Assembly (NCBI RefSeq): GCF_006345805.1
Contig: NW_021832984.1
Span: 1-52,343 of the forward strand
Origin: Octopus sinensis
Taxonomy: Eukaryota
Direction: 5' to 3'
Length of the DNA stretch: 52,343 bases
In this document: positions 10,837 to 52,343 of the stretch, one piece after another
Numbering within the stretch: position 1 is the first letter of the stretch
Layout: each line of letters begins with the position of its first letter
Notes under the pieces: generated by a model
Seen by the model: only the letters and a program-made list of their open reading frames with translations
Database searches by the model: none
What the model was told of the DNA's origin: nothing
Translations under genes and position numbers: made by a program

Positions 10837-12595
10837 TTTACCCAAGTGTGTTGTTATCTGTGATTAGACGTTGAAATTTTGTTGTGTAAAGTGATTAATA
10901 TCGCGCGAGGCGTTTGCCTCCACGTGTGGAAACCTTCCGAAGAAGGTGAATTGACCCTCTAGTCATGGCGACTTACGCGGGGGTCACGGGAAAGAAAAAT
11001 AATGATTCGTCGATAATCGTGAAGGATGTTTTCTTTGAGAAGAGTAAACTCAAAGAATACGAAAAGCTATTCAAAAGGGAGGGTGATAGCGTGAAGCTGG
11101 TCCCCCCGCGAAAGCAAAGGAGGACAAGGAAACAAACTGTAACGTATAGAACCCAGGACAAAAGTACAAAGAAACTGGCAAGAGTGGAGATAGCAGAGAT
11201 CGAAAAATGTCTGGGAGACATAATGGATAATCGACCTACGTGAGTAGAGGAAAAAAATTTGGTACGGTGGAGGTGAGATGTGCAACGGAAGAAATTGCAG
11301 CCTCACTGGCTACCACTGTTCTAAGAGCGGAAACATTTATAATGTGGCCCTCATACAAGGGAAGAAGAGGGGTCCGGGTTAAAATCCCGAATATACCCCC
11401 AGAAGTAAAAACAGAATGGCTGGCAACAGCTATTCTAGGAGCAGCAGAAGAGGAAGTGGAGGTGGAATCCTTTAAGGAGTCCAACGCAGTAAATTGGAGA
11501 GGATATGGGGTAGAACTGTGTTTGATGGCCACAAAAGAGGACATTGAAAGGTTCCCCTATAGAATAGAAATCGAAGACGAGAAAACCCTCAGTGTAATTG
11601 TAGAGGGAAGAAAGCCAAACTGCTACTTGTGCGGGACAAGGGGGCACATTAAAAAAGAGTGCCCGTTATATGAATTCATGGCGGAGTATGAGAAGGAAAA
11701 TGAAGAAAAGAAGAATACGGTAAATGAAAAAGAAAACATAGAAAAGGAGACAAAACAACAAGAGAAAGGAAATAATAAGTCAACGAAGGAAAAAGAAATA
11801 AAAGAAAAGAAAGAAATAGAACCAAAACAGAGTCAGGAAAAGAAAAAGGAAAAAGAAACAACAGGAAAAAAACAAGAGAGAGAACAGAACCAAACGAAAA
11901 GAAAAGACGGCACACAAAAAGAAAAAGAAAAGGAACATAAAACACGAGAGAAAGAGAGAACAGACAAAGAACCAAAAAGACAAGAGAAGGAAGAAGAAAG
12001 AAAAGAAGGCAAAAAGAGAGAAAGAGAGAAACAAAGAGAGGAGAACAAGGAAGAAATAAGCCCGAAAAGAAAACGAGAGAAAACGTAGGACGGAAACAAG
12101 ATTACTACAAGTTAATAACCTTCCATTTCAGCCCCGAAATGAAGGAATTGACATGTAGTATGGAGGGACATGTGTGGGTCAACAGGATGACTGATCAGTG
12201 GCAGGAGACTGCTCTGATCCCCGAAGAAAGAGTCGCTGAGTTCCTCAGAGCAGCTGAGAGAGTGTAATTTTTACACGTGTTCGAGTGAAGAGCGGCTGCC
12301 TGAGGGCTCAGTGATTGACTTTAGAGACTTGAAAAGTATTATGGAATACGTGTGAGATTGTGAGAGGAGAGAGAAGAAAGAAGAGAAAAAGAAAAAAAAA
12401 ATTGTGAACTATAGGTGACGAAAATGTAACCTCTCGATTCCGGGGATCGAGTGGGCATTGCATCTCATTGTAATATTCTTTCATTTGTCATTTTTATTTT
12501 TATTTTTTTCCCTTCTTGTCATTTCGCTTTCTTATTTTAAGTTCCCCGATTGTATTGTCCCCTCTATGTTCGCCCCTTGTGGGTAGTAATAAAAT
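10837..12595 (+). mobile_element. ORF1-only non-autonomous Tx1-type retroelement, copy 1
   Basis: Single gag-like ORF, no EN/RT. 3' tail shared with the LINE at 14397-19605. Bounded by target repeats. Confidence 0.85.
10965..12354 (+). CDS. ORF1p (N-terminal domain, CCHC zinc knuckle, K/E-rich linker, C-terminal domain), frameshifted in this sequence
   Basis: Start MATYAGVTG; knuckle CYLCGTRGHIKKEC; K/E-rich region. After a frameshift near 12080 it continues ..DYYKLITFHFSPEMKELTC..WQETALIPEERVAEFL. Confidence 0.75.
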
Positions 12596-12608
12596 CACAT
12601 CGAGGAAA
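12596..12608 (+). repeat. Target-site repeat 2 (CACATCGAGGAAA)
   Basis: Direct reading. Confidence 0.9.
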
Positions 12609-14381
12609 TTTACCCAAGTGTGTTGTTATCTGTGATTAGACGTTGAAATTTTGTTGTGTAAAGTGATTAATATCGCGCGAGGCGTTTGCCTCCACGTGTG
12701 GAAACCTTCCGAAGAAGGTGAATTGACCCTCTAGTCATGGCGACTTACGCGGGGGTCACGGGAAAGAAAAATAATGATTCGTCGATAATCGTGAAGGATG
12801 TTTTCTTTGAGAAGAGTAAACTCAAAGAATATGAAAAGCTATTCAAAAGGGAGGGTGATAGCGTGAAGCTAATCCCCCCCGCGAAAGCAAAAGAGGACAA
12901 AGAAAACAAGACTGTAACATATAGAACCCAAGACAAAAATACAAATAAACTGGCAAGAGTGGAGATAGCAGAAATCGAAAAATGTCTGGAAGACATAATG
13001 GGGAAATCGACCTACGTGAGTAGAGGCAAGAAATTTGGTACGGTGGAGGTGAGATGTGCAACGGAAGAAATTGCAGCCTCACTGGCTACCACTGTACTAA
13101 GAGCGGAAACATTTATAATGTGGCCCTCATACAAGGGAAGAAGAGGGGTCCGGGTTAAAATCCCGAATATACCCCCAGAAGTGAAAACAGAATGGCTGGC
13201 AACAGCTATTCTAGGAGCAGCAGAAGAGGAAGTGGAGGTGGAATCCTTTAAGGAGTCCAACGCGATAAACTGGAGAGGATATGGGGTAGAACTGTGTTTG
13301 ATGGCCACAAAAGAGGACATTGAAAGGTTCCCCTACAGAATAGAAATTGAAGATGAGAAAACCCTCAGTGTAATTGTAGAGGGAAGAAAGCCAAACTGCT
13401 ACTTGTGCGGGACAAGGGGGGAACATTAAAAAAGAGTGCCCGTTATACGAATTCGTAGCGGAGTGCGAGCAGGAATTTGAAGAAAGAAGAATACGGTAAA
13501 TGAAAAAGAAAACATAGAAAAGGAAACAAAACAACAAGAGAAAGGAAATAATAAGTCAATGAAGGAAAAGAAATAAAAGAAAAGAAAGAAATAGAACCAA
13601 AACAGAGTCAGGAAAAGAAAAAGGAAAAAGAAACAACAGGAAAAAAACAAGAGAGAGATCAGAATCAAACGAAAAGAAAAGACGGCACACAAAAAGAAAA
13701 AGAAAAGGAACATAAAACACGAGAGAAAGAGAGAACAGACAAAGAACCAAAAGACAAGAGAAGGAAGAAGAAAGAAAAGAAGCAAAAAGAGAGAAAGAGA
13801 GAAACAAAGAGAGGAGAACAAGGAAGAAATAAGCCCGAAAAGAAAAACGAAGGAAAACGTAGGACGGAAACAAGATTACTGCTTCTACAAGTTAGTAACC
13901 TTCCATTTCTGCCCTGGAAATGAAAGAATTAACATGTAATACGGAGGGACATATATGGGTCAACAGGATGACCGATCAGTGGCAGGAGACTGCTCTAATC
14001 CCCGAAGAAAGAGTCGCTGAGTTCCTCAGAGCTGCCGGAGAGAGTGTAATATTTTACACGAGTGTTCGAGTGAGAGAGCGGCTGCCTGAGGGCTCAGTGA
14101 TTGACTTTAGAGAATTGAAAGTTATTATGGAATACGTATAGAATTGTGAGAAGAGAGAGAAGAAAAGAAGAGAAAAAAGAAAATATTGTGAAATATATGT
14201 GACGAAAATGTAACCTCTCGATTCCGGGGATCGAGTGGGCATTTACATCTCATTGTAAATATTCTTTCATATGTCATTTTTTACTATTAATTTTTCCTTT
14301 TCTTGTCATTCGCTTTCTTATTTTAAGTTCCCCGATTGTACTGTCCCATCTATGTTCGCCCCTTGTGGGTAGTAATAAAAT
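12609..14381 (+). mobile_element. ORF1-only non-autonomous Tx1-type retroelement, copy 2
   Basis: Colinear with copy 1, same 5' end, scattered substitutions. Confidence 0.85.
12737..14141 (+). CDS. ORF1p, copy 2 (frameshifted)
   Basis: ORF-track 12737-13429 (230 aa, ends in the zinc knuckle) and 13920-14141 (C-terminal domain). Confidence 0.75.
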
Positions 14382-14396
14382 CACATGGAGGAAAGC
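14382..14396 (+). repeat. Target-site repeat 3 (CACATGGAGGAAAGC)
   Basis: Identical 15-mer at 19606-19620. Confidence 0.92.
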
Positions 14397-14609
14397 TATT
14401 TTTGCGTTTATTAGTAAGTTGATATATTTTTGCTCTCGTACTATTATCTCTGTTATTATATACTGTTGGTCTACCTGTTTTGTCTATTGTTGTCTAACTG
14501 ACGAAGTCAGCCTTCGCGCGAAGACTTCGCGTTGGTGTTCCCCCCTCAGTGGGGGAAAACTACAATTAATTTGGATTTACCAAAGGCTTGTTAAAGCCAT
14601 TTGTTCAAG

Positions 14610-15960
14610 ATGGAGTCCCCCATCTCTTATTCGCCCGTGACGAGCGAGGATGAATACCCGGCGTTGTCGCCAATTAAAAAACAGGCGTTGTCGCCAAGAA
14701 AAAAAGAAGCGTTGTCGCCGAAGAAAAAAGAGGCGGCGTCGCCCAATGGAAAAACCAGTACCAGCATCAACTCCAGCAAAAAAATTCGCTGAAGTGGCTG
14801 GGAAAAAGATCAAAAAAATAAATATAGACAATTTTAAAAAATTTGCAGACTGTGTAAAAAAAGAAGGCACAGAAGTGACTGTGGCCACAAACATACAAAT
14901 ACATGACGATATAGAAAAAAAAGAATAATATATAAACTTACGACACAACGAAAAAAATGATCCAAAAAATCGAAGAAAAAAAATAGAGTCTTGTCTAAAA
15001 CCTTTTATGGATAAAATAACGTATATAAACAGAGGAAAAAAATACGGCACAGTGGAGGTGCGTTTTACTACGGAGGAGATAGCGAAGAAACTATCGATGG
15101 AGCCAATCAAAGCGGAAAACATTGTCTTACTACCATTGTATAAAGGAAAAAGGACGTCGAAAATTTCAATGAACAATATACCGCCAGAGGCAGATGCTGA
15201 ATGTCTGGTGGCAGCAGTGATGGTAGGTCTGGAGGAAAAAATAAACATCCTCCAGGCCACAGTGGAGGAAGAGGAGTTTTGGAAGGGCAAAAAATAGTGA
15301 TAGCCATTCAGGCGGAGGTGCAAACACTGGAAGAAATTCCAGAAACGGTAAAGATTAGTGAAGACGAGAAATAACAGTTTTCGTGGAGGGCAGGAAGCCG
15401 AGGTGCTTCGGCTGCGGCAAGAGGGTCATGTAAGGGCGGAATGCCAACCCCAACCCAAACCGCAGGAAGCACCTAAGCCAAAAGAAAAAGAAGATAATGT
15501 GTCACCAGAAGCAGCGTCGGGACGGCCCAGAAGGGAAGACTGAAGGTGTGGAGGTGACGGTGACAGCAGAACCAGCGGCGGAGGAAAAAAGAGCGAGGAA
15601 AAGATAAATGAGGAGGGGTGGGCAAAATTACCGGAAGAAAAAAAAGAAAAACGGAAACCACCCCTCCCAGAGTAATTTTAAAAAGAAAAAGAGTCAATGA
15701 ACTCGTATATGGCCGTAAAGGCAGCAAATAGCAGACTCGGAAACGTGTTGGCAGCCATGGCCAAAGTGGAGAAAGTAGTGAAAAAAAACGACTTTGTAAT
15801 TTACAGAATAGGCCGGAAGGATTACGGGCGGATAAAGTCAGAATTCTTCCATGACGTAGGCCCACTTAGATTGGATGTGACATCTCCACATATATTCGAG
15901 GGCCCACGAGGCCCAGAAAAAGAGTTAGAAGAACAAGAGAAAACCGAACCACTGATATAA
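14610..15960 (+). CDS. ORF1p of the Tx1-clade LINE (frameshifted)
   Basis: Start MESPISYSP; YINRGKKYGTVEVRFTTEEIA and NIPPE are homologous to the ORF1-only elements; C..C..GHVRAEC knuckle near 15405-15445. Confidence 0.78.
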
Positions 15961-15968
15961 GGTAAGTA

Positions 15969-18900
15969 ATGGATTACATTTATGTTGGTTGTTTGAATGT
16001 GCGCGGCCTGGGAGCAGGCTGGAAGCAAGGTCGCTTCCTGCATGATATCAGGTCGCGTAACTTAGATGTTATTGTTGCTACAGAAACCCGGTTAGAGGGG
16101 CCAAGAGGTCTACTCCCGCTGTTTGACGGCTACGAGAGTTTTTTCTCTCCTGGCAGTCCTACAGGCGGGAGTGGGGTGTTGGTCCTATTAAAAAGAACCG
16201 GGTTTCTGAGAAAAAGTTAATTTTTGCAGATCCAGAAGGTAGGCTGGTCGTCATGGATTTGACGTTCAGTAATGGTAAAGTTATCAGACTGGTTGCAATT
16301 TACGCGCACCCAACCATACAGGGCAAAGTGATTATTTTCGTGAACTAGAAAACTTTCTTGGTACTTCGCATTCATTAGTGGTGCTAGGAGACTTTAACAC
16401 AATTTGCAAAGCGGATGTAGATTATGTTGGCTCGTGTCCAGATAGAAAAGGCAACAGTGGCTTCATGGAACTGCTAAGCCGCTTTGAGCTAGCAGATCCT
16501 TATAGGCTGGAATTTCCGAACGCTCCATTGTGGACATGGTCAAACAGCGACGGATCTTCCAGGTCATATTTAGATAGAATACTAATTAGAAAAGTAGACA
16601 GTAAAATAGCTAAGTGTCCACAGTTTTACCCGATCAGCTACAGTGATCATAAATGGTCACTTGTAAGCTTGACATAGATAAGGTTAAAATAGAGGATCCG
16701 GGTACTGGAAACTTAATACGTCCCTTTGGCGATTAAGGAGTACAAAGACCGGATTAGGAATATAATTCAGAGGGCACTATCTGGTACCATCATTAATAAC
16801 AAATGGTGGTACGCCCTCAAACGAGCCATCAAGTTTGAGTCTATTAGATATAGCATAGGAGTAGTGGCTAGAGAGGCTAGAAGGGAAACTACTCTAGTTA
16901 AGGAATTAGAGGAAGCCATGAAAACTGGCTCTGCGGCTCAGGTGGCGTCCAAGAGACTGGTGTTAAACCAGCACCTCGAGGCCAAACACATGGGCTGCAT
17001 TGTCAGGGCTAGAATCCGCCATATGGGATGTGAAGGAATCAACGCCGTGAGATGGGCCCGAGTGGTGGAAGCTCGGCATGGTAACGATGCCACGATTCGA
17101 TCTTTGACGAACCAACAAGGTGAGTTGATAAACGAACCCGAAGAGATGTGTGAGGCCTTTCAGGAGCACTTCGCTCAGCTTTTCGGTGAGTGCGGCGGAC
17201 TGGATAGGAGGAGGGCCTTTACGGACCTACTCGACGGGCTGCCGCGCTTATCGGGGCGAGATGCGGAGGGCTGTGAAGGGCCAATCACGCCTGAGGAGGT
17301 GGTGAGGCAATGGCGGACTGCGGCGCGGGCAAGGCGCCGGGTTTGGATGGTCTACCCTATGAGTTATATAAGAGTATGCCAGACTTGTTCGGGCACCTAC
17401 TGGCGGAGGTCTATGCGAACTGGCAGCAGAACGGGCTTATACCCAGATCTGTGCGCCGGGGATTAGTGACTCTCGTCAGAAAGGACCCGAGCAAGGGGGA
17501 GTGCATTGATAATTTCAGGCCCATCACTCTGCTAAACACAGAGTTGAAGATTTTGGCCAAAGTGTTATCGGAAAGATTGGCGCGTGTCGCGGATGGTCTG
17601 ATCGGAGAGGCACAGACATGTGCCGTTCCGGGCAGATCCATTCAGGATAATCTCCATCTAATGCGGTACACTATAGAGGGGTTTAATAGTGATTCTGGCA
17701 AGGGTGGGGCACTGGTCCAATTAGACCAATCTAAAGCTTTTGATAGGGTCGACCATCGTTACCTGGTATCTGCCCTGGCACAGTTCGGGCTGAGCCTTGG
17801 CTTCCTCAGGTGGATTATCCAAATGTATGATAACATCGACTCGGTAGTTCGGGTGAACGGCTTCTTGTCGAAGCCGTTCAAAATCAAACGCTCAGTTCGT
17901 CAAGGGTGTCCGCTCTCCCCGCTTTTGTACGTGATGGCTCTTGAGCCATTACTGCGAAAACTGAGCGGCATCCCGAGACAGCCAGGTAATGGAAAATCAG
18001 TGTCAGCGTACGCGGATGACATCACCATCATCGTAACCGAAATGGACCACCTATGTAAAGTAGGCAAGGCCATAGAGGTTTACGAGACGGTGACAGGAGC
18101 AAAAGTTAATCGCGAAAAGTCAGTCGGCTTGCAACTCGGCACCTGGAGAGGCAAGTCGATGCCTCCTGACAGCGTCGTGGGACGTTGGACGGAGGGTCCG
18201 ATTAAACTGCTAGGGGTCTGGTTCGGTCCAGACCTCCAAATAGAGAAGAATTGGGGCGAGGTAACGAGCAAGGTGGCTGCAGTAGCCAAGACCTGGTCTT
18301 GGCGGTGGCTATCCCTGAAAGGGAGGGCGGAGGTGGCCAATGTGTTTATCGCATCGGTTATCACCTACCGCCTTTCCGTCGTTCCTTGCCCTGATTCGTG
18401 GTTGATCAAGTTGGAAAGACAGCTCTTCTACTTCTACTTCTTGGGAAGGGCGGGAAACCACTTGTGAACGCTCTACTTGCTGTCAACAACCGTTAAAGGG
18501 TGGGCTAGGGATGCCTTGGCTGATGATGCGCAGACATGCGCTGAGGTTAAGACATCTGTGGCTCTACATGGATGGTGAACGGGTGTGGTCTTCGCTAGCA
18601 AAACTGATGTTTCCCAAGTTCACTAGTTTCGGTGGATGGGAAACTGGCTGAATCGTAGATCGAAACTTGGTACTTGGTACACGGAGTGTCGCAAGGCTCT
18701 CCTGCTATTCCGTCGCTCGGGCAACGCCTGCGGTGGGGGTTCCACCACATTCTTCTATAGAGGGTTGGTAGAGGCGGAATGTGAAGATACCTTGGGGGAA
18801 ACCCTAGGTCTCGACGATAATCAGCTGGCCAGTCTGTTCCGACGTACGTTCGAGCCGAGGACACTGGACAACTTCCAGAAGTCTCTGGCATGGCAATGCT

Positions 18901-19361
18901 ACAGAGGAGCTCTACCTGTTCGGGATAAACTCGCAAGGCACGGTGGCCAAGACAGTCCGATATGTCCAAGATGCGGGCGGGATAGGAAACCGTCCCGCAC
19001 GCTATTGTTCATTGTCCGGACGTGTCTGCTGTGTGTTTATGCCGAACACCTGTTGTCAGGTACACGAAGAGTACAGCTGTCGACTGAGTCGATTACAAAA
19101 ATTGACCCACCGGATTTCCTCGTGAATGAAGGTAAGTTTCGTTTTCTCGTTGTAGTAGCAATTGCGAAAGAGGTGATATGGAAGACGAGAAAGAAAGGTT
19201 TACAGTCAGGCAAGTTCATCTCCGGCCCTGGTTTGATGAATTATTTCATCTTTCACCTGAAAAGGAAGATAGGGCTGGAGAGAATATGCCTGACTAGGAG
19301 AGTGTATGAAGAACGATGGAAGGATGTAGCACGAAAGTTGCGAGTGAAAGATACAACATAA
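15969..19361 (+). CDS. ORF2p APE endonuclease / reverse transcriptase / C-terminal zinc finger (several frameshifts)
   Basis: Motifs CLNVRGL, VLGDFN, YLDRILI, SDH, GKAPGLDGLP, FRPITLLNTELKILAK, LDQSKAFDRV, SVRQGCPLSPLLY, YADD, LSLKGR, CPRCG. Confidence 0.9.
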
Positions 19362-19605
19362 ATGTAATACAAGCGCAACCAAAAGTATCAGTGGGGAGGC
19401 GGGGCTCGTGGGGTCCGAGCTAAACCCGCACCCACTCCACCCGTAATGTCTTCCGGTCTGTCCCATCATTCGATTTCTGTCCATTTATTGTAATTCATGA
19501 AAATTTTTAAATCCGATTTATTGTAAAAACCCATTCGTTTGTCTGACCCCATCATCAGATTGTATTGTCCCATCTATGTTCGCCCCTTGTGGGTAATAAT
19601 AAAAT

Positions 19606-19895
19606 CACATGGAGGAAAGCACATTCGAAAAGTGTCTTGGTGCGACTATGAAAGGTATCTAATCAGAGGCGGTAAATTCGCCACAATAGAAGCAAGGTTC
19701 GAGTCAACGGAGCGTGCAAGGGAATACTCGACTCGAACTTGCAAAGTGGAAATATTTTATTTTTACGTAGGACGTCCCGGATAAAAATTAAAAATATCCA
19801 CCCTGAAGTAGAGGTAGGCTGGATTATAGCCACACTTCTATACAAGAGGGAGGACAAGATACAATTGATCGAAATTACAAGAGACGGGCTAACAA
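19606..19895 (+). pseudogene. 3' part of the interrupted Tx1-type ORF1 fragment (starts with target repeat 4)
   Basis: HMEESTFEKCLG / YLIRGGKFATIEARFESTERA / RIKIKNIHPEVEVGWIIATLL align with EIAEIEKCL / YVSRGKKFGTVEVRCATEEIA / RVKIPNIPPEVKTEWLATAIL. Confidence 0.8.
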
Positions 19896-20159
19896 TTCCA
19901 GTCTGTTATATATTTTGAGTATTGTTATCACTAGCGATATCAAGATATAACTTTGTATTTTGTATTGTATGTGTAGATGTATATATATAGATGTACATGT
20001 AATATGTACACATATATATACACATATATACATGCACTAGCACTATGACCCGGCAACGACGGGTCTTTAATGCTAGTTGTTAATAAATCTAAAGTATGGA
20101 ATTCATGACAAATACCCTGAAGTAATCAAAATGTGATAAAAAGAGAATTAGTTAAGTTA

Positions 20160-20650
20160 ATTTTTTGGCTCAAAAAGCAAAAAGCAAGGCCATGTAGGGG
20201 GACATGGAGTTATGTACAAGGTGGCGTTCATGCAAAGAGTTCAGGCCATTTCTGGTCAAGGGAGACTTTTAACCGAGCGGTCGTCGGCATTTTCACTATC
20301 TCGTCCGGCAGCTTATTCCACGAATTCGCAACACGGACGAAGAAAGCCCCTCTCCTTCGATTAAGATGAAATCGTCGCAGATATAGCTTTTCGGAGTGAG
20401 CACGCAGCCGACGCTTTGGAGCAGGAGTGAAGAACAGCTCTTTCGAGAGGTTACACTTTCCGCTTATGATGGTGTGAGCAAGAATGAGATCACCACGGCG
20501 TCGTCGTTTTTCTAGAGAATAAAGGTCGAGCGCCTTCAGCCTTTCTTCATAAGACAAATGCTTGAGACCAAGAACCATGCGGGTAGACAGCTTCTGGACT
20601 CTTTCGAGATGCTGTATGTCTTTGAGGAGATAAGGAGAAGAGGATTGAAA
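20160..20650 (-). mobile_element. CR1-group LINE 3' fragment (another family)
   Basis: GLKHLSYEERLKALDLYSLEKRRRRGDLI..FFVRVANSWNKLP. Confidence 0.88.
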
Positions 20651-21719
20651 GGAATCTCATCAATGTAGAATCGTTTAATTGGAAGCTTCTGGTTTACATT
20701 TTTTGAATATCAGATTTCTCACATTTCTGAACATTGTTTCTTTGTTTCTTAGCATTGAGTAAGTATCCGACCAACAACTCATAATTATGAGGATCATAAA
20801 TTTTTGTATATTAAAGTCTATATCTCTATATTCTTAAACATACCACGCTACGTTGATAACTGCGCTGTGTGATTCGAGGGAGATATTTTATTGCTATTTG
20901 TTGCGGGTTTTTACATTTCTTTCGTTGTAGATGGGTTGCATGTGGCAAGTGTTACTGTTTAAGATTCTTTGTGGGTTGCTTTTACGAATTGGTTCTAGTT
21001 TTTAATGGAAAACAATGTCTTAGAACTTCCAGAGTTGCAAGATTTTCGGTCTATGCAGCAATTCCAAAGAATATTGATTTCCTAATGTTTGTTTGGTATT
21101 CGAAATATGTGAATTCCTTCTTAGATATTTGTTCAATGGCAAATATTTTTTCTAGATTGCTTTAGGCTTTTTACTTGCTATTGAATATATATATATATAT
21201 AATATATATATATATAACTCAAGATCATATTTTCACTGTGAGCCACGATCCAGTCTGTTAAAGCATCTACAAACTTCGTTTCATGTTGATAGCTTTGGAG
21301 CTGTATAGATTTCTAATATTTATCTTGAAACTTGTATCTCCACTACTTTTAGTGGCTTGTTTTTATTTTCATTTCCTTTCTCGTTGTTCACATCAGCAAT
21401 ATTTTCTTTCATTCACCTCTCAGTATTAGATGCTTGCACCAATCATATTTCGTTTTTTAAGTGCTACATAGCAATTTATTTTCACATGTTTCACGTTACA
21501 TCGATTTTGTCTGCAAAATATATAATTTCCCATTTAAAAAAAATGTTTCCCGATGTACATGCAACTTTACAAAAATCAGGTCATATTGCCCAGCATATTT
21601 GTAATCCTCTTCATTAAGTATATTTATTATAAAACTCCTGAGCATTGACTTTGTAAAATTGATTGTTGTAATGCATTTACGATTTTGAAGAAATGTAAAT
21701 GAAGACATTCCCTAAGAAT

Positions 21720-34705: not shown

Positions 34706-36476
34706 TACTTTGATACTTTGATACTTTGATAGGTTTAGGCCAGTTATTAAAAAAGGCCATGTCTAACTTAATAGCACCACCTGGTGAAGGATATCAAGTC
34801 AGAATTTGGGCACTATGGCCCACTCAAGTAGAGAGTTATTGTTTACAGAAACATATCCGGGTGTAGGGGGTTTATCCGGGATTTCTTGAAGGAATCTGTC
34901 CAAAGACTTCTTGAACCCTATAGGGTTAGTTTCTGTTTTAATGTGTTTTGGTGTAATGTTAAAGAGAGCGGGGCCAATTGAGGTGAAATAATTGTGCCGT
35001 ATTGTTGTTGTGAGATGAGAGTGCGATTTTTGTTTTGGGCAGATGGCACGGGGCCCAAGCCTTGGGTGTACCTTAAAGGTGATGCCAACATCATTTGGGC
35101 AATGCTGATGGAATATTTTCCACATCATGCAGTTGATGTAGCGCTCACGACGACGTTGGAGAGAATAAAGTTTTAGCTTTTCTAGTCGACCCCAGTAGTC
35201 GAGGCCTGTCATGCCATCTATCTTTTTTGTGATTGCCCTTTGAGTGCTTCAACTTTTATGATATCATGTGGGGAGACCACAGTGGACAACAGTATTCAAG
35301 GTGGGGTCTGGCAAAAGTGGAGAAGAGAAGGATAATGGTGTGGATACCTCTCGACTTGAAAGTTCTGAGAATCCAGGAACACATTCTGCGGGCCATGTCA
35401 ACTTTGGTGTTTATATGAGTGGCCCAGCTTATGTTGTCCACAATTACTCCCAAGTCTCTGATGTTGTTGGACGCCGCGAGAGTTTCACCTGATGGAAGGG
35501 AGTATGGGAGTTTCAGGGCATCCTCTTTTCCAAAGTAGATTAACTCAAATTTATCCTCGTTCAGCAGCATATTGTTTTTTTCTGCCCATTGGATAACAGC
35601 CAGTAGATCTGACTGAAGGCATGTCCGGTCACTCGCCTCATTTATGACCTTCTGTAGCTTGGAATCATCTGCAAAGATTTTTATGTTGCTGTGCTTGATG
35701 ATGTCATTAATGTCATTAATGTAAATGATGAAAAGAAGTGGGCCCAGCACAGTGCCTTGCGGAACGCCACTACTGACTTTGGCTGGGCTTCATTTTACCC
35801 CTTCAACTACAACATGTTGAGATCTGTCTGTCAGGAAACACGTGATCCATTTCAGTAACTTTCCAGAGACACCAATGTTGGATAGTTTTTTCAATAGGAT
35901 CTTGTGATCGACCCTGTCGAAGGCCTTACTGAAATCAAGGTAGATGACATCGGTGTTGGAGCCCTCTCCCAAAGCTCTCAGAATGTCCTCAAAGTGATGC
36001 AGGAGCTGCGTTAGGCAGTCCCTTCCATTACGGAACCCATGTTGGTTGGAGATCAGCCGTCTGTTGCTTTCCAGAAATTGGGTTATTCGAGATCTCACCA
36101 CCCTCTCAAATATCTTGAAGATATGAGAGGTGAGTGAGATCGGACGGTAGTTCACTACAAGGGACTTGTTTCCCTTTTTGAAAACTGGGACAACAGACTG
36201 GGACAGAAGGTTTTTTGGAATATAGCCAGCAACCAGTGAGTTTCTCCACAGATAAGCAAGGGGAGATGCAAGTTGGTGTCGACAAACCTTCAGGACACAA
36301 CCAGGGAACCTATCGGTGCCTACTGTTGAATTGTGTTTTATTTCGTTTATCGCCGCTAAGACATCAGGGGCACTAAAAGTTATGTCCAATATAGTGTGTT
36401 GGGGGTTGACATCACTGATACAGCCCAGATCGGCCATATCAGGATTGCTGAAAACAGAGCAGTATTGTTTCTGCAG
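34706..36476 (-). mobile_element. CR1-group LINE, 3' half (RT), (TATCAAAG)n tail; 5' side runs into the satellite
   Basis: NYRPISLTS, QHGFRNGRDC, IYLDFSKAFDRVDH, LGPLLFIIYIND, FADDSK, RPHLEYC; tail reads TACTTTGA x3 on +. Confidence 0.92.
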
Positions 36477-39400
36477 AAAAAAGAGCAGTATTGTTTCTGC
36501 AGAAAACAGAGCAGTATTGTTTCTGCAGAAAACAGAGCAGTATTGTTTCTGCAGAAAACAGAGCAGTATTGTTTCTGCAGAAAATAGAGCAGTATTGTTT
36601 CTGCAGAAAACAGAGCAGTATTGTTTCTGCAGAAAATAGAGCAGTAATGTTCTGCAGAAAAGAGAGCAGTATTGTTTCTGCAGAAAAGAGAGCAGTATTG
36701 TTTCTGCAGAAAACAGAGCAGTATTGTTTCTGCAGAAAACAGAGCAGTATTGTTTCTGCAGAAAACAGAGCAGTTTTGTTTCTGCAGAAAATAGAGCAGT
36801 ATTGTTTCTGCAGAAAACAGAACAGTATTGTTTCTGCAGAAAATAGAGCAGTATTGTTTCTGCAGAAAACAGAGCAGTATAGTTTCTGCAGAAAACAGAG
36901 CAGTATTGTTTCTGCAGAAAACAGAGCAGTATTGTTTCTGCAGAAAATAGAGCAGTATTGTTTCTGCAGAAAACAGAGCAGTATTGTTTCTGCAGAAAAC
37001 AGAGCAGTATTGTTTCTGCAGAAAACAGAGCAGTATTGTTTCTGCAAAAACAGAGCAGTATTGTTTCTTTTTCTGCAGAAAACAGAGCAGTATTGTTTCT
37101 GCAGAAAACAGAGCAGTATCGTTTCTGCAGAAAAAGAGCAGTATTGTTTCTGAAAAAATAGAGCAGTATTGTTTCTGCAGAAAACAGAGCAGTATTGTTT
37201 CTGCAGAAAACAGAGCAGTATTGTTTCTGCAGAAAATAGAGCAGTATTGTTTCTGCAGAAAACAGAGCAGTATTGTTTCTGCAGAAAACAGAGCAGTATT
37301 GTTTCTGCAGAAAACAGAGCAGTATTGTTTCTGCAGAAAACAGAGCAGTATTGTTTCTGCAGAAAACAGAGCAGTATTGTTTCTGCAGAAAATAGAGCAG
37401 TATTGTTTCTGCAGAAAACAGAGCAGTATTGTTTGTTTCTGCAGAAAACAGAGCAGTATTGATTCTGCAGAAAACAGAGCAGTATTGTTTCTGCAGAAAA
37501 CAGAGCAGTATTGTTTCTGCAGAAACAGAGCAGTATTGTTTCTGCAGAAAACAGAGCAGTATTGTTTCTGCAGAAAGAGAGCAGTATTGTCTCGGCAGAA
37601 AACAGAGCAGTATTGTTTCTGCAGAAAAGAGAGCATATTGTTCTGCACAAAAGAGAGCAGTATTGTTTCTGTAGAAAAGAGAGCAGTATTGTTTCTGCAG
37701 AAAATAGAGCAGTATTGTTTCTGCAGAAAACAGAGCAGTTTTGTTTCTGCAGAAATAGAGCAGTTTTGTTTCTGCAGAAAATAGAGCAGTATTGTTTCTG
37801 CAGAAAACAGAGCAGTTTGTTTCTGTAGAAAAGAGAGCAGTATTGTTTCTGCAGAAAATAGAGCAGTATTGTTTCTGCACAAAGAGAGCAGTTTTGTTTC
37901 TGTAGAAAGAGAGCAGTATTGTTTCTGCAGAAAATAGAGCAGTATTGTTTCTGCAGAAAACAGAGCAGTTTTTGTTTCTGCAGAAAATAGAGCAGTATTG
38001 TTTCTGCAGAAACAGAGCAAGTATTGTTTCTGCAGAAAACAGAGCAGTTTTGTTTCTGCAGAAATAGAGCAGTATTGTTTCTGCGCAGAAAACAGAGCAG
38101 TATTGTTTCTGCAGAAATAGAGCAGTATTGTTTCTGCAGAAAACAGAGCAGTATTGTTTCTGCAGAAAACAGAGCAGTATTGTTTCTGCAGAAAATAGAG
38201 CAGTATTGTTTCTGCAGAAATAGAGCAGTATTGTTTCTGCAGAAAACAGCAGTATTGTTTCTGCTGCAGAAAACAGAGCAGTATTGTTTCTGCTGAAAAA
38301 TAGAGCAGTATTGTTTCTGCAGAAACAGAGCAGTATTGTTTCTGCAGAAACAGAGCAGTATTGTTTCTGCAGAAAATGAGCAGTATTGTTTCTGCTGCAG
38401 AAATAGAGCAGTATTGTTTCTGCAGAAAACAGAGCAGTATTGTTTCTGCAGAAAACAGAGCAGTATTGTTTCTGCAGAAAACAGAGCAGTTTTTGTTTCT
38501 GCAGAAAATAGAGCAGTATTGTTTCTGTAGAAAACAGAGCAGTATTGTTTCTGCAGAAATAGAGCAATATTGTTTCTGCAGAAATAGCAGTATTGTTTCT
38601 GCAGAAAACAGAGCAGTATTGTTTCTGCAGAAAATAGAGCAGTATTGTTTCTGCAGAAAACAGAGCAGTATTGTTTCTTCAGAGAAAACAGAGCTGAATT
38701 GTTTCTGCAGAAAATAGAGCAGTATTTTTTCTGCAGGAAACAGAGCAGTATTGTTTCTGCAGAAAACAGAGCAGTATTGTTTCTGCAGAAATAAGCAGCA
38801 TTGTTTCTGCAGAAAACAGAGCAGTATTGTTTCTGCAGAAAACAGAGCAGTATTGTTTCTGCAGAAAACAAGAGCAGTATTGTTTCTGCAGAAAACAGAG
38901 CAGTATTGTTTCTGCAGAAACAGAGCAGTATTGTTTCTGCAGAAAACAGAGCAGTATTGTTTCTGCAGAAAACAGAGCAGTATTGTTTCTGCAGAAAACA
39001 GAGCAGTATTGTTTCTGCAGAAAATAGAGCAGTATTGTTTCTGCAGAAAACAGAGCAGTATTGTTTCTGCAGAAAACAGAGCAGTATTGTTTCTGCAGAA
39101 AACAGAGCAGTATTGTTTCTGCAGAAAACAGAGCATATTGTTCTGCAGAAAACAGAGCAGTATTGTTTCTGCAGAAAATAGCAGTATTTGTTTCTGCAGA
39201 AAACAGAGCAGTATTGTTTCTCTGCAGAAAAAAGAACTGAATGTTTCTGCAGAAATAGAGCAGTATTGTTTCTGCAGAAAACAGAGCAGTATTGTTTCTG
39301 CAGAAAACAGAGCAGTATTGTTTCTGCAGAAAATAGAGCAGTATTGTTTTCTGCAGAAAACAGAGCAGTATTGTTTCTGCAGAAAACAGAGCAGTATTGT

Positions 39401-42400
39401 CTCGGCAGAAAAGAGCAGTATTGTTTCTGCAGAAAAGAGCAGTATTGTTTCTGCAGAAAACAGAGCAGTATTGTTTCTGCAGAAATAGAGCAGTATTGTT
39501 TCTGCAGAAAACAGAGCAGTATAGTTTTTCTGCAGAAAACAGAGCAGTATTGTTTCTGCAGAAAACAGAGCAGTATTGTTTCTGCAGAAAATAGAGCAGT
39601 ATTGTTTCTGCAGAAAACAGCAGTATTGTTTCTGCAGAAAACAGAGCAGTATTGTTTCTGCAGAAAACAGAGCAGTATTGTTTCTGCAGAAAACAGAGCA
39701 GTATTGTTTCTGCAGAAAACAGAGCAGTATTGTTTCTGCAGAAAACAGAGCAGTATCGTTTCTGCAGAAAAAAGAGCAGTATTGTTTCTGAAAAAAATAG
39801 AGCAGTATTGTTTCTGCAGAAAACAGAGCAGCATTGTTTCTGCAGAAAACAGAGCAGTATTGTTTCTGCAGAAAATAGAGCAGTATTGTTTCTGCAGAAA
39901 ACAGAGCAGTATTGTTTCTGCAGAAAACAGAGCAGTATTGTTTCTGCAGAAAACAGAGCAGTATTGTTTCTGCAGAAAACAGAGCAGTATTGTTTCTGCA
40001 GAAAATAGAGCAGTATTGTTTCTGCAGAAAATAGAGCAGTATTGTTTCTGCAGAAAACAGAGCAGTATTGTTTCTGCAGAAAACAGAGCAGTATTGATTC
40101 TGCAGAAAACAGAGCAGTATTGTTTCTGCAGAAAACAGAGCAGTATTGTTTCTGCAGAAAACAGAGCAGTATTGTTTCTGCAGAAAACAGAGCAGTATTG
40201 TTTCTGCAGAAAAGAGAGCAGTATTGTCTCGGCAGAAAACAGAGCAGTATTGTTTCTGCAGAAAAGAGAGCAGTATTGTTCTGCACAAAAGAGAGCAGTA
40301 TTGTTTCTGTAGAAAAGAGAGCAGTATTGTTTCTGCAGAAAATAGAGCAGTATTGTTTCTGCAGAAAACAGAGCAGTTTTGTTTCTGCAGAAAATAGAGC
40401 AGTTTTGTTTCTGCAGAAAATAGAGCAGTATTGTTTCTGCAGAAAACAGAGCAGTTTTGTTTCTGTAGAAAAGAGAGCAGTATTGTTTCTGCAGAAAATA
40501 GAGCAGTATTGTTCTGCACAAAAGAGAGCAGTTTTGTTTCTGTAGAAAAGAGAGCAGTATTGTTTCTGCAGAAAATAGAGCAGTATTGTTTCTGCAGAAA
40601 ACAGAGCAGTTTTGTTTCTGCAGAAAATAGAGCAGTATTGTTTCTGCAGAAGACAGAGCAGTATTGTTTCTGCAGAAAACAGAGCAGTTTTGTTTCTGCA
40701 GAAAATAGAGCAGTATTGTTTCTGCAGAAAACAGAGCAGTATTGTTTTGTTTCTGCAGAAAAGAGCAGTATTGTTTCTGCAGAAACAGAGCAGTATTGTT
40801 CTGCAGAAAACAGAGCAGTTTGTTTCTGCAGAAAATAGAGCAGTATTGTTTCTGCAGAAAATAGAGCAGTATTGTTTCTGCAGAAAACAGAGCAGTATTG
40901 TTTCTGCAGAAAACAGAGCAGTATTGTTTCTGCAGAAAATAGAGCAGTATTGTTTCTGCAGAAAACAGAGCAGTATTGTTTCTGCAGAAAACAGAGCAGT
41001 ATTGTTTCTGCAGAAAATAGAGCAGTATTGTTTCTGCAGAAAATAGAGCAGTATTGTTTCTGCAGAAAACAGAGCAGTATTGTTTCTGCAGAAACAGAGC
41101 AGTATTGTTTCTGCAGAAAACAGAGCAGTTTTGTTTCTGCAGAAAATAGAGCAGTATTGTTTCTGTAGAAAACAGAGCAGTATTGTTTCTGCAGAAAATA
41201 GAGCAATATTGTTTCTGCAGAAAATAGAGCAGTATTGTTTCTGCAGAAAACAGAGCAGTATTGTTTCTGCAGAAAATAGAGCAGTATTGTTTCTGCAGAA
41301 AACAGAGCAGTATTGTTTCTTCAGAAAACAGAGCTGAATTGTTTCTGCAGAAAATAGAGCAGTATTGTTTCTGCAGGAAACAGAGCAGTATTGTTTCTGC
41401 AGAAAACAGAGCAGTATTGTTTCTGCAGAAAATAGAGCAGTATTGTTTCTGCAGAAAACAGAGCAGTATTGTTTCTGCAGAAAACAGAGCAGTATTGTTT
41501 CTGCAGAAAACAGAGCAGTATTGTTTCTGCAGAAAACAGAGCAGTATTGTTTCTGCAGAAAACAGAGCAGTATTGTTTCTGCAGAAAACAGAGCAGTATT
41601 GTTTCTGCAGAAAACAGAGCAGTATTGTTTCTGCAGAAACAGAGCAGTATTGTTTCTGCAGAAAATAGAGCAGTATTGTTTCTGCAGAAAACAGAGCAGT
41701 ATTGTTTCTGCAGAAAACAGAGCAGTATTGTTTCTGCAGAAAACAGAGCAGTATTGTTTCTGCAGAAAACAGAGCAGTATTGTTTCTGCAGAAAACAGAG
41801 CAGTATTGTTTCTGCAGAAAATAGAGCAGTATTGTTTCTGCAGAAAACAGAGCAGTATTGTTTCTGCAGAAAAAAGAACTGAATTGTTTCTGCAGAAAAT
41901 AGAGCAGTATTGTTTCTGCAGAAAACAGAGCAGTATTGTTTCTGCAGAAAACAGAGCAGTATTGTTTCTGCAGAAAATAGAGCAGTATTGTTTCTGCAGA
42001 AAACAGAGCAGTATTGTTTCTGCAGAAAACAGAGCAGTATTGTCTCGGCAGAAAAGAGAGCAGTATTGTTTCTGCAGAAAAGAGAGCAGTATTGTTTCTG
42101 CAGAAAACAGAGCAGTATTGTTTCTGCAGAAAATAGAGCAGTATTGTTTCTGCAGAAAACAGAGCAGTATTGTTTCTGCAGAAAACAGAGCAGTATTGTT
42201 TCTGCAGAAAACAGAGAAGTATTGTTTTTGCAGAAAACAGAGCAGTATTGTTTCTGCAGAAAACAGAGCAGTATTGTTTCTGCAGAAAACAGAGCAGTAT
42301 TGTTTCTGCAGAAAACAGAGCAGTATTGTTTCTGCAGAAACAGAGCAGTATTGTTTCTGCAGAAAACAGAGCAGTATTGTTTCTGCAGAAAACAGAGCAG

Positions 42401-45400
42401 TATTGTTTCTGTAAAAATAGAGCAGTATTGTTTCTGCAGAAAACAGAGCAGTATGTTTTTCTGCAGAAACAGAGCAGTATTGTTTCTGCAGAAAATAGAG
42501 CAGTATTGTTTCTGCAGAAAATAGAGCAGTATGTTTTCTCTGCAGAAAACAGAGCAGTATTGTTTCTGCTGCAGAAAACAGAGCAGTATTGTTTCTGCAG
42601 AAAAGAGCAGTATTGTTCTGCAGAAAAGAGAGCAGTATTGTTTCTGCAGAAAACAGAGCAGTATTGTTTCTGCAGAAAACAGAGCAGTATTGTTTCTGCA
42701 GAAAACAGAGCAGTATTGTTTCTGCAGAAAACAGAGCAGTTTTGTTTCTGCAGAAAATAGAGCAGTATTGTTTCTGCAGAAAACAGAGCAGTATTTTTCT
42801 GCAGAAAACAGAGCAGTATTGTTTTCTGCAGAAAACGGAGCAGTATTGTTTCTGCAGAAAACAGAGCAGTATTGTTTCTCTGTAGAAAATAGAGCAGTAT
42901 TGTTTCTGCAGAAAACAGAGCAGTATTGTTTCTGCAGAAACAGAGCAGTATTGTTTCTGCAGAAAATAGAGCAGTATTGTTTCTGCAGAAAATAGAGCAG
43001 TATTGTTTCTGCAGAAACAGAGCATATTGTTTCTGTTTCTCTGCAGAAAACAGAGCAGTATTGTTTCTGCAGCGAAACAGAGCAGTATTGTTCTGCAGAA
43101 AAGAGAGCAGTATTGTTTCTGCAGAAAACAGAGCAGTATTGTTTCTGCAGAAAACAGAGCAGTATTGTTTCTGCAGAAAATAGAGCAGTATTGTTTCTGC
43201 TGAAAATAGAGCAGTATTGTTTCTGCAGAAAACAGAGCAGTATTGTTTCTGCAGAAAATAGAGCAGTATTGTTTCTGCAGAAAATAGAGCAGTATTGTTT
43301 CTGCAGAAAACAGAGCAGTATTGTTTCTGCAGAAAACAGAGCAGTATTGTTTCTGCAGAAAACAGAGCAGTATTGTTCTGCAGAAAAGAGAGCAGTCTTG
43401 TTTCTGCAGAAAACCGAGCAGTATTGTTTCTGCAGAAAACAGAGCAGTATTGTTTCTGCAGAAACCAGAGCAGTATTGTTTCTGCAGAAAACAGAGCAGT
43501 TTTGTTTCTGCAGAAAATAGAGCAGTATTGTTTCTGCAGAAAACAGAGCAGTATTGTTTCTGCAGAAAATAGAGCAGTATTGTTTCTGCAGAAAATAGAG
43601 CAGTATTGTTTCTGCAGAAAACAGAGCAGTATTGTTTCTGCAGAAAATAGTGCAGTATTGTTTCTGCAGTAAACAGAGCAGTATTGTTTCTTCAGAAAAT
43701 AGAGCTGAATTGTTTCTGCAGAAAATAGAGCAGTATTGTTTCTGCAGGAAACAGAGCAGTATTGTTTCTGCAGGAAACAGAGCAGTATTGTTTCTGCAGA
43801 AAATAGAGCAGTATTGTTTCTGCAGAAAACAGAGCAGTATTGTTTCTGCAGAAAACAGAGCAGTATTGTTTCTGCAGAAAACAGAGCAGTATTGTTCCTG
43901 CAGAAAACAGAGCAGTATTGTTTCTGCAGAAAACAGAGCAGTATTGTTTCTGCAGAAAACAGAGCAGTATTGTTTCTGCAGAAAACAGAGCAGTTTTGTT
44001 TCTGCAGAAAATAGAGCAGTATTGTTTCTGCAGTAAACAGAGCAGTATTGTTTCTGCAGAAAATAGAGCAGTATTGTTTCTGCAGAAAATAGAGCAGTAT
44101 TGTTTCTGCAGAAAACAGAGCAGTATTGTTTCTGCAGAAAATAAAGCAGTATTGTTTCTGCAGAAAACAGAGCATTATTGTTTCTGCAGAAAACAGAGCT
44201 GAATTGTTTCTGCAGAAAATAGAGCAGTATTGTTTCTGCAGGAAACAGAGCAGTATTGTTTCTGCAGAAAACAGAGCAGTATTGTTTCTGCAGAAAATAG
44301 AGCAGTATTGTTTCTGCAGAAAACAGAGCAGTATTGTTTCTGCAGAAAACAGAGCAGTATTGTTTCTGCAGAAAACATAGCAGTATTGTTTCTGCAGAAA
44401 ACAGAGCAGTATTGTTTTTGCAGAAAATAGAGCAGTATTGTTTCTCTGCAGAAAATAGAGCAGTATTGTTTCTGCAGAAAACAGAGCAGTATTGTTTCTG
44501 CAGAAACAGAGCAGTATTGTTTTCTGCAGAAAACAGAGCAGTATTGTTTCTGCAGAAAATAGAGCAGTATTGTTTCTGCAGAAAACAGAGCAGTATTGTT
44601 TCTGCTGCAGAAAACAGAGCAGTATTGTTTCTGCAAAAATAGAGCAGTATTGTTTCCGCAGAAATAGAGCAGTATTGTTTCTGCAGAAAACAGAGCAGTA
44701 TTGTTTCTGCAGAAAACAGAGCAGTATTGTTTCTGCAGAAAACAGAGCAGTATTGATTCTGCAGAAAACAGAGCAGTATTGTTTCTGCAGAAAACAGAGC
44801 AGTATTGTTTCTGCAGAAAACAGAGCAGTATTGTTTCTGCAGAAAACAGAGCAGTATTGTTTCTGCAGAAAACAGAACAGTATTGTTTCTGCAGAAAACA
44901 GAGCAGTATTGTTTCTGCAGAAAATAGAGCAGTATTGTTTCTGCAGAAAACAGAGCAGTATTGTTTCTGCAGAAAACAGAGCAGTATTGTCTCGGCAGAG
45001 ATGGGAGCAGTATTGTTTCTGCAGAAAACAGAGCAGTATTGTTTCTGCAGAAAACAGAGCAGTATTGTTTCTGCAGAAAATAGAGCAGTATGTTTCTGCA
45101 GAAAACAGAGCAGTATTGTTTCTGCAGAAAACAGAACTGAATTGTTTCTGCAGAAAATAGAGCAGTATTGTTTCTGCAGAAAACAGAGCAGTATTGTTTC
45201 TGCAGAAAACAGAGCAGTATTGTTTCTGCAGAAAAGAGAGCAGTATTGTTTCTGCAGAAAACAGAGCAGTATTGTTTCTGCAGAAAATAGAGCAGTATGT
45301 TTCTGCAGAAAACAGAGCAGTATTGTTTCTGCAGAAAACAGAACTGAATTGTTTCTGCAGAAAATAGAGCAGTATTGTTTCTGCAGAAAACAGAGCAGTA

Positions 45401-51400: not shown

Positions 51401-52343
51401 GTTTCTGCAGAAAACAGAGCAGTATTGTTTCTGCAGAAAATAGAGCAGTATTGTTTCTGCAGAAAATAGAGCAGTATTGTTTCTGCAGAAATCAGAGCAG
51501 TATTGTTTCTGCAGAAAACAGAGCAGTATTGTTTCTGCAGAAAACAGAGCAGTATTGTTCTGCAGAAAAGAGAGCAGTATTGTTTCTGCAGAAAACAGAG
51601 CGCTATTGTTTCTGCAGAAAACAGAGCAGTATTGTTTCTGCAGAAAACAGAGCAGTATTGTTTCTGCAGAAAATAGAGCAGTATTGTTTCTGCAGAAAAT
51701 AGAGCAGTATTGTTTATGCAGAAAACAGAGCAGTATTGTTTATGCAGAAAATAGAGCAGTATTGTTTCTGCAGAAAACAGAGCAGTATTGTTTCTGCACA
51801 AAACAGAGCTGAATTGTTTCTGCAGAAAATACAGCAGTATTGTTTCCGCAGAAAACAGAGCAGTATTGTTTCTGCAGAAAACAGAGCAGTATTGTTTCTG
51901 CAGAAAACAGAGCAGTATTGTTTCTGCAGGAAATAGAGCAGTATTTTTTCTGCAGAAAACAGAGCAGTATTGTTTCTGCAGAAAATAGAGCAGTATTGTT
52001 TCTGCAGAAAACAGAGCCGTATTGTTTCTGCAGAAAACAGAGCAGTATTGTTTCTGCAGAAAATTGAGCAGTATTGTTTCTGCAGAAAACAGAGCAGTAT
52101 TGTTTCTGCAGAAAATAGAGCAGTATTGTTTCTGCCTAAAACAGAGCAGTATTGTTTCTGCAGAAAACAGAGCAGTATTGTTTCTGCAGAAAATAGAGCA
52201 GTTTTGTTTCTGCAGAAAACAGAGCAGTATTGTTTCTGCAGAAAACAGAGCAGTATTGTTTCTGCAGAAAACAGAGCAGTATTGTTTCTGCAGAAAATAG
52301 AGCAGTATTGTTTCTGCAGAAAACAGAGCAGTATTGTTTCTGC
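36451..52343. repeat. Satellite DNA, 26-bp monomer AAAA(C/T)AGAGCAGTATTGTTTCTGCAG, about 610 copies, runs off the window
   Basis: Direct reading. Each junction forms the palindrome TTTCTGCAGAAA (contains a PstI site). Confidence 0.98.

Follow-up and report, generated by a model that had tools for sequence, protein, structure and literature searches.

A probable ORF1-only LINE family in Octopus that shares the 3' tail and, at one locus, the insertion site of a Tx1-type LINE

Background

We studied 52,343 nucleotides of Octopus sinensis DNA (contig NW_021832984.1, forward strand; hereafter the window), in which two short retrotransposon units and a complete long interspersed nuclear element (LINE) form a head-to-tail array on the plus strand. 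Unit 1 occupies positions 10837-12595 (1759 nt), unit 2 positions 12609-14381 (1773 nt), and the LINE, which is 5.2 kb long and contains endonuclease and reverse transcriptase (RT) domains, positions 14397-19605. The original prediction, made from the sequence alone, held that the two units encode only a zinc-knuckle protein of the first open reading frame (ORF1p), that they share the 3' tail of the LINE, and that they borrow its second protein (ORF2p) and target specificity in the manner of HAL1. We examined the coding content of the units, their tail, their insertion site and their relatives, and then weighed this explanation against others.

Results

The two units are 94.2% identical over 1807 aligned nucleotides. 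Unit 1 consists of a 5' untranslated region (UTR) of 128 nt, ORF1 (10965-12355) and a 3' UTR of about 240 nt, and its ORF1 encodes a conserved N-terminal core, a CCHC knuckle, a linker rich in K and E, and a C-terminal domain of about 90 residues. Unit 2, which represents a second subfamily, has its ORF1 at 12737-14141. When small insertions and deletions (indels) are bridged with X, each unit contains a single ORF1 of 468 codons, with a zf-CCHC match in Pfam (E 5e-5). No trace of ORF2 was found in either window unit by tblastn or by a profile hidden Markov model (HMM) built from 45 ORF2 relatives (best E 1.9); the same model spans the neighbouring LINE at model positions 4-1150. As predicted, the units encode only a zinc-knuckle ORF1p.

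Both copies are frameshifted as assembled. The ORF1 of unit 1 has 10 indel-broken codons and one stop; that of unit 2 is one open frame over codons 1-230, with 4 indel-broken codons and two inserted bases. Contigs from the sequencing runs restore some bases missing from the ORF1s in the window, and the breaks are due either to decay of the locus or to assembly error.

The neighbouring LINE (14397-19605) is a full-length autonomous element of the L1/Tx1 type, also frameshifted as assembled. Its ORF1 (14610-15960) is broken, and its ORF2 (15969-19361) encodes an APE endonuclease, an RT and a zf-RVT motif, with Pfam matches to RVT_1 (E 2e-32), zf-RVT (E 0.007) and Exo_endo_phos (E 0.11). Full-length relatives of this ORF2 carry PF03372, PF00078 and PF13966 together, and its best match in the Protein Data Bank (PDB) is L1 ORF2p. 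The CCHC motif, significant in the short ORF1, is visible in the ORF1 of the LINE, and an RRM match reached only E 0.057; ORF1s with RRM and CCHC motifs are reported to be consistent with Tx1 (PMC5203782). The combination of an L1-group ORF2 (APE, RT and a C-terminal zinc motif), a CCHC ORF1 and a fixed target would fit the Tx1 group.

The short ORF1 is homologous to the ORF1 of the LINE and clearly diverged from it, with 36.7% identity over 158 amino acid residues of the core, and 34% over 225 residues when P0002, which is 92% identical to the neighbour's ORF1, was used as a proxy. No profile similarity was detected by hhalign between the C-terminal domains of the two types (probability 0.25%; reversed control 0.16%), and a homology of these domains that had been suspected by eye was thus dropped. 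In a quick tree of 52 ORF1 cores, the short type groups with other Octopus ORF1s, for example P0001 of O. bimaculoides, to which it is 52% identical. The ESM Atlas gave no usable match.

The prediction of a different C-terminal domain and a different 5' UTR therefore stood for the domain and only in part for the 5' UTR, in which a weak resemblance between the short and long types is kept (score reached by 2 of 500 shuffles in global and 10 of 500 in local alignment). Each element has a 3' UTR of about 240 nt; upstream of the tail, it can barely be aligned between the types, and 16-63 of 500 shuffles scored equally well. Both units have the same join of ORF1 to 3' UTR, which indicates that the loss of ORF2 is older than their split. 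We also observed TCGCGCGA in both types of 5' UTR (about 10900-10910 and 14512-14525), a candidate for a shared promoter word, and two small predicted hairpins in the 3' UTR of both units (12430-12475 and 14214-14262), the second of which remains paired because an insertion in one arm is matched by one in the other. No claim is made for a fold of the whole 3' UTR, for which z was -0.7 in unit 1 and -2.2 in unit 2.

The near-identity of the 3' ends was borne out: when the last 48 nt (12548-12595 in unit 1, 14334-14381 in unit 2 and 19558-19605 in the LINE) are aligned, 45 of 48 columns are invariant. The tail, which ends in AATAAAAT in unit 1, has a core motif that occurs within the window at these three places only. 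It can form a predicted stem of 10 pairs, and two of the three variable columns make up one pair that is kept as UA, UG and CG; from three sequences, this covariation is a hint of a conserved stem. Shared tails are an accepted sign that LINEs recognise the 3' end stringently (PMC3747384). The tail pattern had no match in metagenome contigs, and the two matches in viral contigs were both unrelated.

Part of the tail also occurs elsewhere in great number. Depth at 12568-12571 is about 427,000 in run X3, compared with 5,000-29,000 in the ORF1 bins, and the contigs that cover the tail (runs X3, X4, X1 and X8) have two recurrent inserted bases and other letters before 12555 and after 12589. These observations indicate that a far more abundant repeat has about 35 nt of the tail (12555-12589). 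Octopus SINEs (short interspersed nuclear elements) were reportedly named by Ohshima and Okada in 1994 (cited in PMC4758252). The abundant repeat is likely to be a SINE that uses the same LINE, because 11.6% of the O. vulgaris genome is reported to consist of SINEs (PMC13282606).

Four copies of the sequence CACAT(C/G)GAGGAAA are present in the window (10824, 12596, 14382 and 19606), so that each of the three elements has one on either side. We regard these as target-site duplications of 13-15 bp: CACATCGAGGAAA at 10824-10836 and at 12596-12608, and CACATGGAGGAAA(GC), which is longer by GC and thus 15 bp, at 14382-14396 and at 19606-19620, the last being the start of the right flank. From left to right, the variable letter reads C, C, G, G. 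The empty site was found directly in contigs of two of the four runs (X3 and X4), as joints of 10814-10827 to 19606-19610, and letters of the left flank form the loose end before 19606 in runs X3, X1 and X8; these contig data cover 15 of the 342 joints and 24 of the 3131 loose ends. The four duplications and the empty site uphold, at this locus, the claim that the units share the target of the LINE. One contig of run X4 (X4-19; 14367-14649 with 26 other letters) hints at a second array, and it was not counted, as fewer than 31 letters remain to the left of its junction.

The array lies within another repeat (10139-20076 overall), which is about 1.15 kb long when the insertions are removed. Its left part (10139-10823, plus strand) contains an internal direct duplication of 146 nt and begins with TC after an A, a 5' end (10138/10139) that is deduced from one copy. 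Its 3' end (20047-20076, plus strand) has a hairpin of 19 nt (20047-20065) that ends 11 nt before CTAG is completed and followed by T; folded as DNA, the hairpin has z -4.25, and none of 200 shuffles was equally stable. Helraiser is reported to have 5' TC, 3' CTAG, an A-T junction and a hairpin of 19 nt that lies 11 nt from the end (PMC4778049). The agreement of the termini and hairpin with these hallmarks suggests that the host is a non-autonomous Helitron-like repeat with a captured piece of a LINE ORF1. In each of the four runs, summed contig depth peaks in the flank bins, with very high values at 10400-10723, the termini being those read from this copy.

The captured piece borders the insertion site on both sides. 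On the left, 10768-10823 matches positions 80-96 of an ORF1 HMM (E 8e-4), and on the right, 19606-19890 matches positions 100-116, 117-149 and 160-199 (best E 3e-11), both on the plus strand and collinear. When the flanks were joined in silico, they gave one continuous ORF1 relic, with positions 80-96 on the left, 93-116 spanning the junction, and 117-149 and 160-199 on the right. The ORF1 relic in which the target lies belongs to a third lineage, and its carrier is the Helitron-like repeat. Other joints (10746 or 10817 to 19888-19892) represent host variants without most of the relic. No small-RNA gene was found as a target: a scan of 9000-22000 with Rfam gave none at any junction and none at gathering score. 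Neither the relic in the Helitron-like host nor the abundant repeat that shares the tail was part of the original prediction.

The short ORF1 evolves under purifying selection. Between units 1 and 2, over 427 codons with indel-adjacent codons left out, the ratio of non-synonymous to synonymous rates (dN/dS) is 0.19-0.32 (kappa 1-8; p 3e-8 to 9e-5), with 28 synonymous and 23 non-synonymous differences, of which 32 of 51 fall in third positions. The ratio is lowest in codons 1-240 (0.10-0.16). Neutral evolution of ORF1, which had been named as an observation that would speak against the prediction, is contradicted by these values.

Five protein clusters contain 27 members in all. Nineteen of these have the short-type C-terminal domain; all 19 are gene models of O. 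vulgaris, lie on 8 contigs (7 of them longer than 50 Mb) and terminate at one common residue. Unit 1 differs from three gene models at 2-4 of 212 residues (nearest 2/212) and unit 2 from two other gene models at 5-6 of 216 (nearest 5/216), whereas the units differ from each other at 11 of 209. Because both units have their nearest relatives among gene models on other contigs and are less close to one another, two subfamilies arrived separately, and local duplication did not produce the pair. Together with the identity of about 35% between the ORF1s, this also agrees with the prediction that the units are not deletions of the neighbouring LINE at this locus. Metagenome contigs contained no ORF1 relatives.

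Several gene models with short ORF1 are neighbours (CAI9715245-249 and 251, CAI9729052-053, CAJ1099379-380 and CAI9739099-101), often of different subfamilies; CAI9715245-249, five consecutive accessions with four distinct sequences, are all of the short type. Such runs suggest longer arrays at other loci, and some may be isoforms. A peptide of 89 residues (P0161-P0168 and P0174-P0176), identical on 9 O. vulgaris contigs, is joined by gene models to the C-terminal half of the short ORF1 (P0164, P0165 and P0176; partly in P0006 and P0160). It is absent from the window, has no significant profile match to the short C-terminal domain, and may represent the terminal part of a different family located upstream in arrays of this kind.

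The remainder of the window contains minus-strand fragments of other retroelements (1690-3912, 5075-5428, 7460-7807, 20228-20578, 22094-22976 and 34799-36437), which, from their translations, we take to be LINE endonuclease and RT pieces together with a GIY-YIG-like piece similar to a Penelope element. The RT fragment at 35790-36437 is directly followed by a satellite (36446-52343) that extends over at least 16 kb; its unit is 26 bp long, and the part that was scanned gave 92% matches.

Discussion

We consider it probable that the two units belong to a dispersed ORF1-only LINE family with a selected ORF1, which is likely to be moved in trans by a Tx1-type ORF2p through the 48-nt tail and to have thereby inherited the target on the Helitron-like repeat. 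We infer the mobilisation in trans, and the fidelity to this target across the genome, from the shared tail and the shared site.

A unit would be transcribed, and its own ORF1p would likely coat its RNA, as LINE biology and the selection on the frame suggest. The ORF2p of the helper would probably bind the tail, perhaps as the predicted stem-loop, in line with the stringent recognition of 3' ends known for other LINEs. Its endonuclease would likely nick between GATTTGAA and CACAT(G/C)GAGGAAA and leave the observed duplication of 13-15 bp. Since every insertion would regenerate the site, arrays could grow. The letters of the duplications are consistent with insertion of the LINE, then of unit 2, then a G-to-C change in the left copy, and then insertion of unit 1. 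The loss of ORF2 likely happened long ago and in a lineage different from that of the neighbour, and the tail alone would have stayed matched to the helper.

Several observations weigh against this explanation. The third variable column of the tail breaks a pair of the stem in unit 1, and the fold of the tail is not significant against shuffles (z 0.11 to -1.41). Selection is weak in the linker and C-terminal domain alone (p 0.01-0.35). The tree in which the short ORF1 is not sister to the neighbour type, a placement that speaks in favour, was only a quick one, with moderate support (SH-aLRT 87-88) at the relevant forks. The ORF2-less structure was seen in the two subfamilies of the window, and the data on the 19 gene models cover their ORF1. 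Likewise, the finding of no off-target flanks is weak, as it covers 24 of 3131 loose ends. Finally, summed contig depth, which is not copy number, is several times greater for ORF2 than for either ORF1 in all four runs, and this leaves room for ORF2 families with other 5' halves, the short-type ORF1 included.

The last point favours an explanation that we think unlikely and still take seriously, in which an autonomous family elsewhere has the same 5' UTR and ORF1 together with ORF2. The units would then be its deletion derivatives and exchange sequence with it, the selection would be partly borrowed, and the neighbouring LINE would be a mere co-tenant. Copies do recombine, since the four-gamete test fails for 56 of 192 site pairs and members of the family are thus mosaics, and O. 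vulgaris is reported to have 80 L1-Tx1 families, 13 of them recently active (PMC13282606). None of 44 candidate proteins of 488-2000 residues has the short-type C-terminal domain, no joint of ORF1 to ORF2 is among the 15 of 342 listed, and the run CAI9715245-249 contains short ORF1s throughout, in which ORF2 may be masked. All of this is weak evidence against such a parent, because ORF2s seem absent from the O. vulgaris annotation (none among the 120 matches listed) and ORF2-like sequence is deeper than ORF1.

It is also conceivable, with a rather low probability, that the family is real and the shared site a local effect, by pile-up at an existing junction or by travel with the Helitron, and that no sequence-specific endonuclease is involved. 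One array alone was seen in full, and the unlisted loose ends could include off-target flanks. However, three insertions, from two distinct families and two subfamilies, occurred at the same base, the gene models that occur next to one another in runs point to arrays elsewhere, and targeting of DNA transposons is reported from the Tx1 clade (PMC4494074). That the units are a multicopy gene family recruited by the host, like L1TD1, and are no longer mobile, is very improbable. Purifying selection and the many gene models with an intact C-terminal half would agree with recruitment, but the LINE tail marks the exact end of each unit, target duplications flank both units, the copies are dispersed and nearly identical, and both window copies are frameshifted. 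We give hardly any credence to the view that the pair is an artefact of assembly or arose when a single dead fragment was locally duplicated in tandem. The units are identical over their first 236 nt, including the duplication (10824-11059 and 12596-12831; chance about 8e-6), and differ by about 5% in the remainder. This identity counts against our explanation as well; homology-aided 5' joining at insertion, gene conversion or assembly collapse could each account for it. There are also many single-base indels, some unsupported by contigs. Neutral decay, however, predicts a dN/dS of about 1, and each unit matches a different subfamily on other contigs.

Beyond the ORF1-only family with its likely helper, a wider scenario can be put forward tentatively, although we doubt it as a whole. 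A Tx1-type endonuclease would target the ORF1 of a related LINE, and capture and multiplication of a piece of this ORF1 by a Helitron would have made a safe site in many copies, shared by an autonomous LINE, one or more old ORF1-only families with a selected ORF1p of their own and possibly a very abundant SINE-like repeat, all served by one ORF2p and a signal of 35-48 nt.

Comparison with known systems

The units represent a real family with a selected ORF1, probably ORF1-only, which is not HAL1 but would work in the manner of HAL1 or HeT-A, and we found no report in which such a family is combined with a DNA transposon targeted by Tx1. Full-text searches revealed no ORF1-only Tx1 family and no Tx1 element targeting a Helitron; this excludes most subscription journals, Repbase and Dfam, so a curated entry may exist. 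A paper on O. vulgaris repeats counts L1-Tx1 and Helitron families, and no description of such a structure was found in it (PMC13282606); nor was anything on the short ORF1 family found in PMC4758252.

ORF1-only LINEs are a recognised type, with HeT-A in Jockey, HAL1 in L1 and Ag-Sponge in CR1 (PMC5786205, PMC5753468, PMC5537684, PMC13534243). Why they keep ORF1 is an open question, for which the usual proposal is co-assembly with the proteins of the partner (PMC5786205). The octopus ORF1p is about 35% identical to that of its putative partner and has a C-terminal domain that cannot be aligned with it, yet it is selected; with the candidate cis signal narrowed to 48 nt, the units offer a compact test system. 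The LINE is furthermore a candidate helper for a very abundant octopus repeat, and a site-specific endonuclease-RT with a short RNA tag would be of interest for targeted insertion.

HAL1 of mammals is likewise non-autonomous, encodes ORF1p only and derives from an L1-group LINE (PMC5753468, PMC5786205). The original comparison with HAL1 holds for this type of element and not for HAL1 in the strict sense, as the short ORF1 matched none of the L1 ORF1 Pfam families and PDB chains and its named relatives that were looked up are all Octopus proteins. Unlike HAL1, the octopus units have a Tx1-type partner with a CCHC ORF1, a specific 48-nt tail without a long poly(A), and a fixed insertion site. 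HeT-A and other telomeric elements of Drosophila (Jockey), and Ag-Sponge (CR1), are also ORF1-only, form head-to-tail arrays and likely receive Pol from an autonomous partner (PMC5537684); about 40% of telomeric families are reported to have lost ORF2 (PMC13534243). Whereas elements of the HeT-A type add to chromosome ends, the octopus units occupy an internal position within another transposon and are flanked by target duplications.

Tx1 LINEs that target non-autonomous DNA transposons are known as Tx1L in Tx1D of Xenopus, and as Tx1-Mar with SINEU in Mariner-N4 and Tx1-9_AMi in Harbinger of crocodilians, and in these systems too the dependants use the same target, with tandem insertions around the target duplication (PMC4494074). 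The dependants there are non-coding SINEs, whereas the octopus dependant encodes a selected ORF1p and sits in a Helitron-like host, where a relic of the ORF1 from a related LINE provides the target bases. The host, in turn, resembles other non-autonomous Helitrons in its 5' TC, 3' CTAG, A-T junction, subterminal hairpin and captured gene piece (PMC4778049), but the piece captured here is a fragment of LINE ORF1 and the landing site for that group of LINEs. The octopus system would thus add the Tx1 group to the three clades with ORF1-only derivatives, and a Helitron to the known targets of Tx1.

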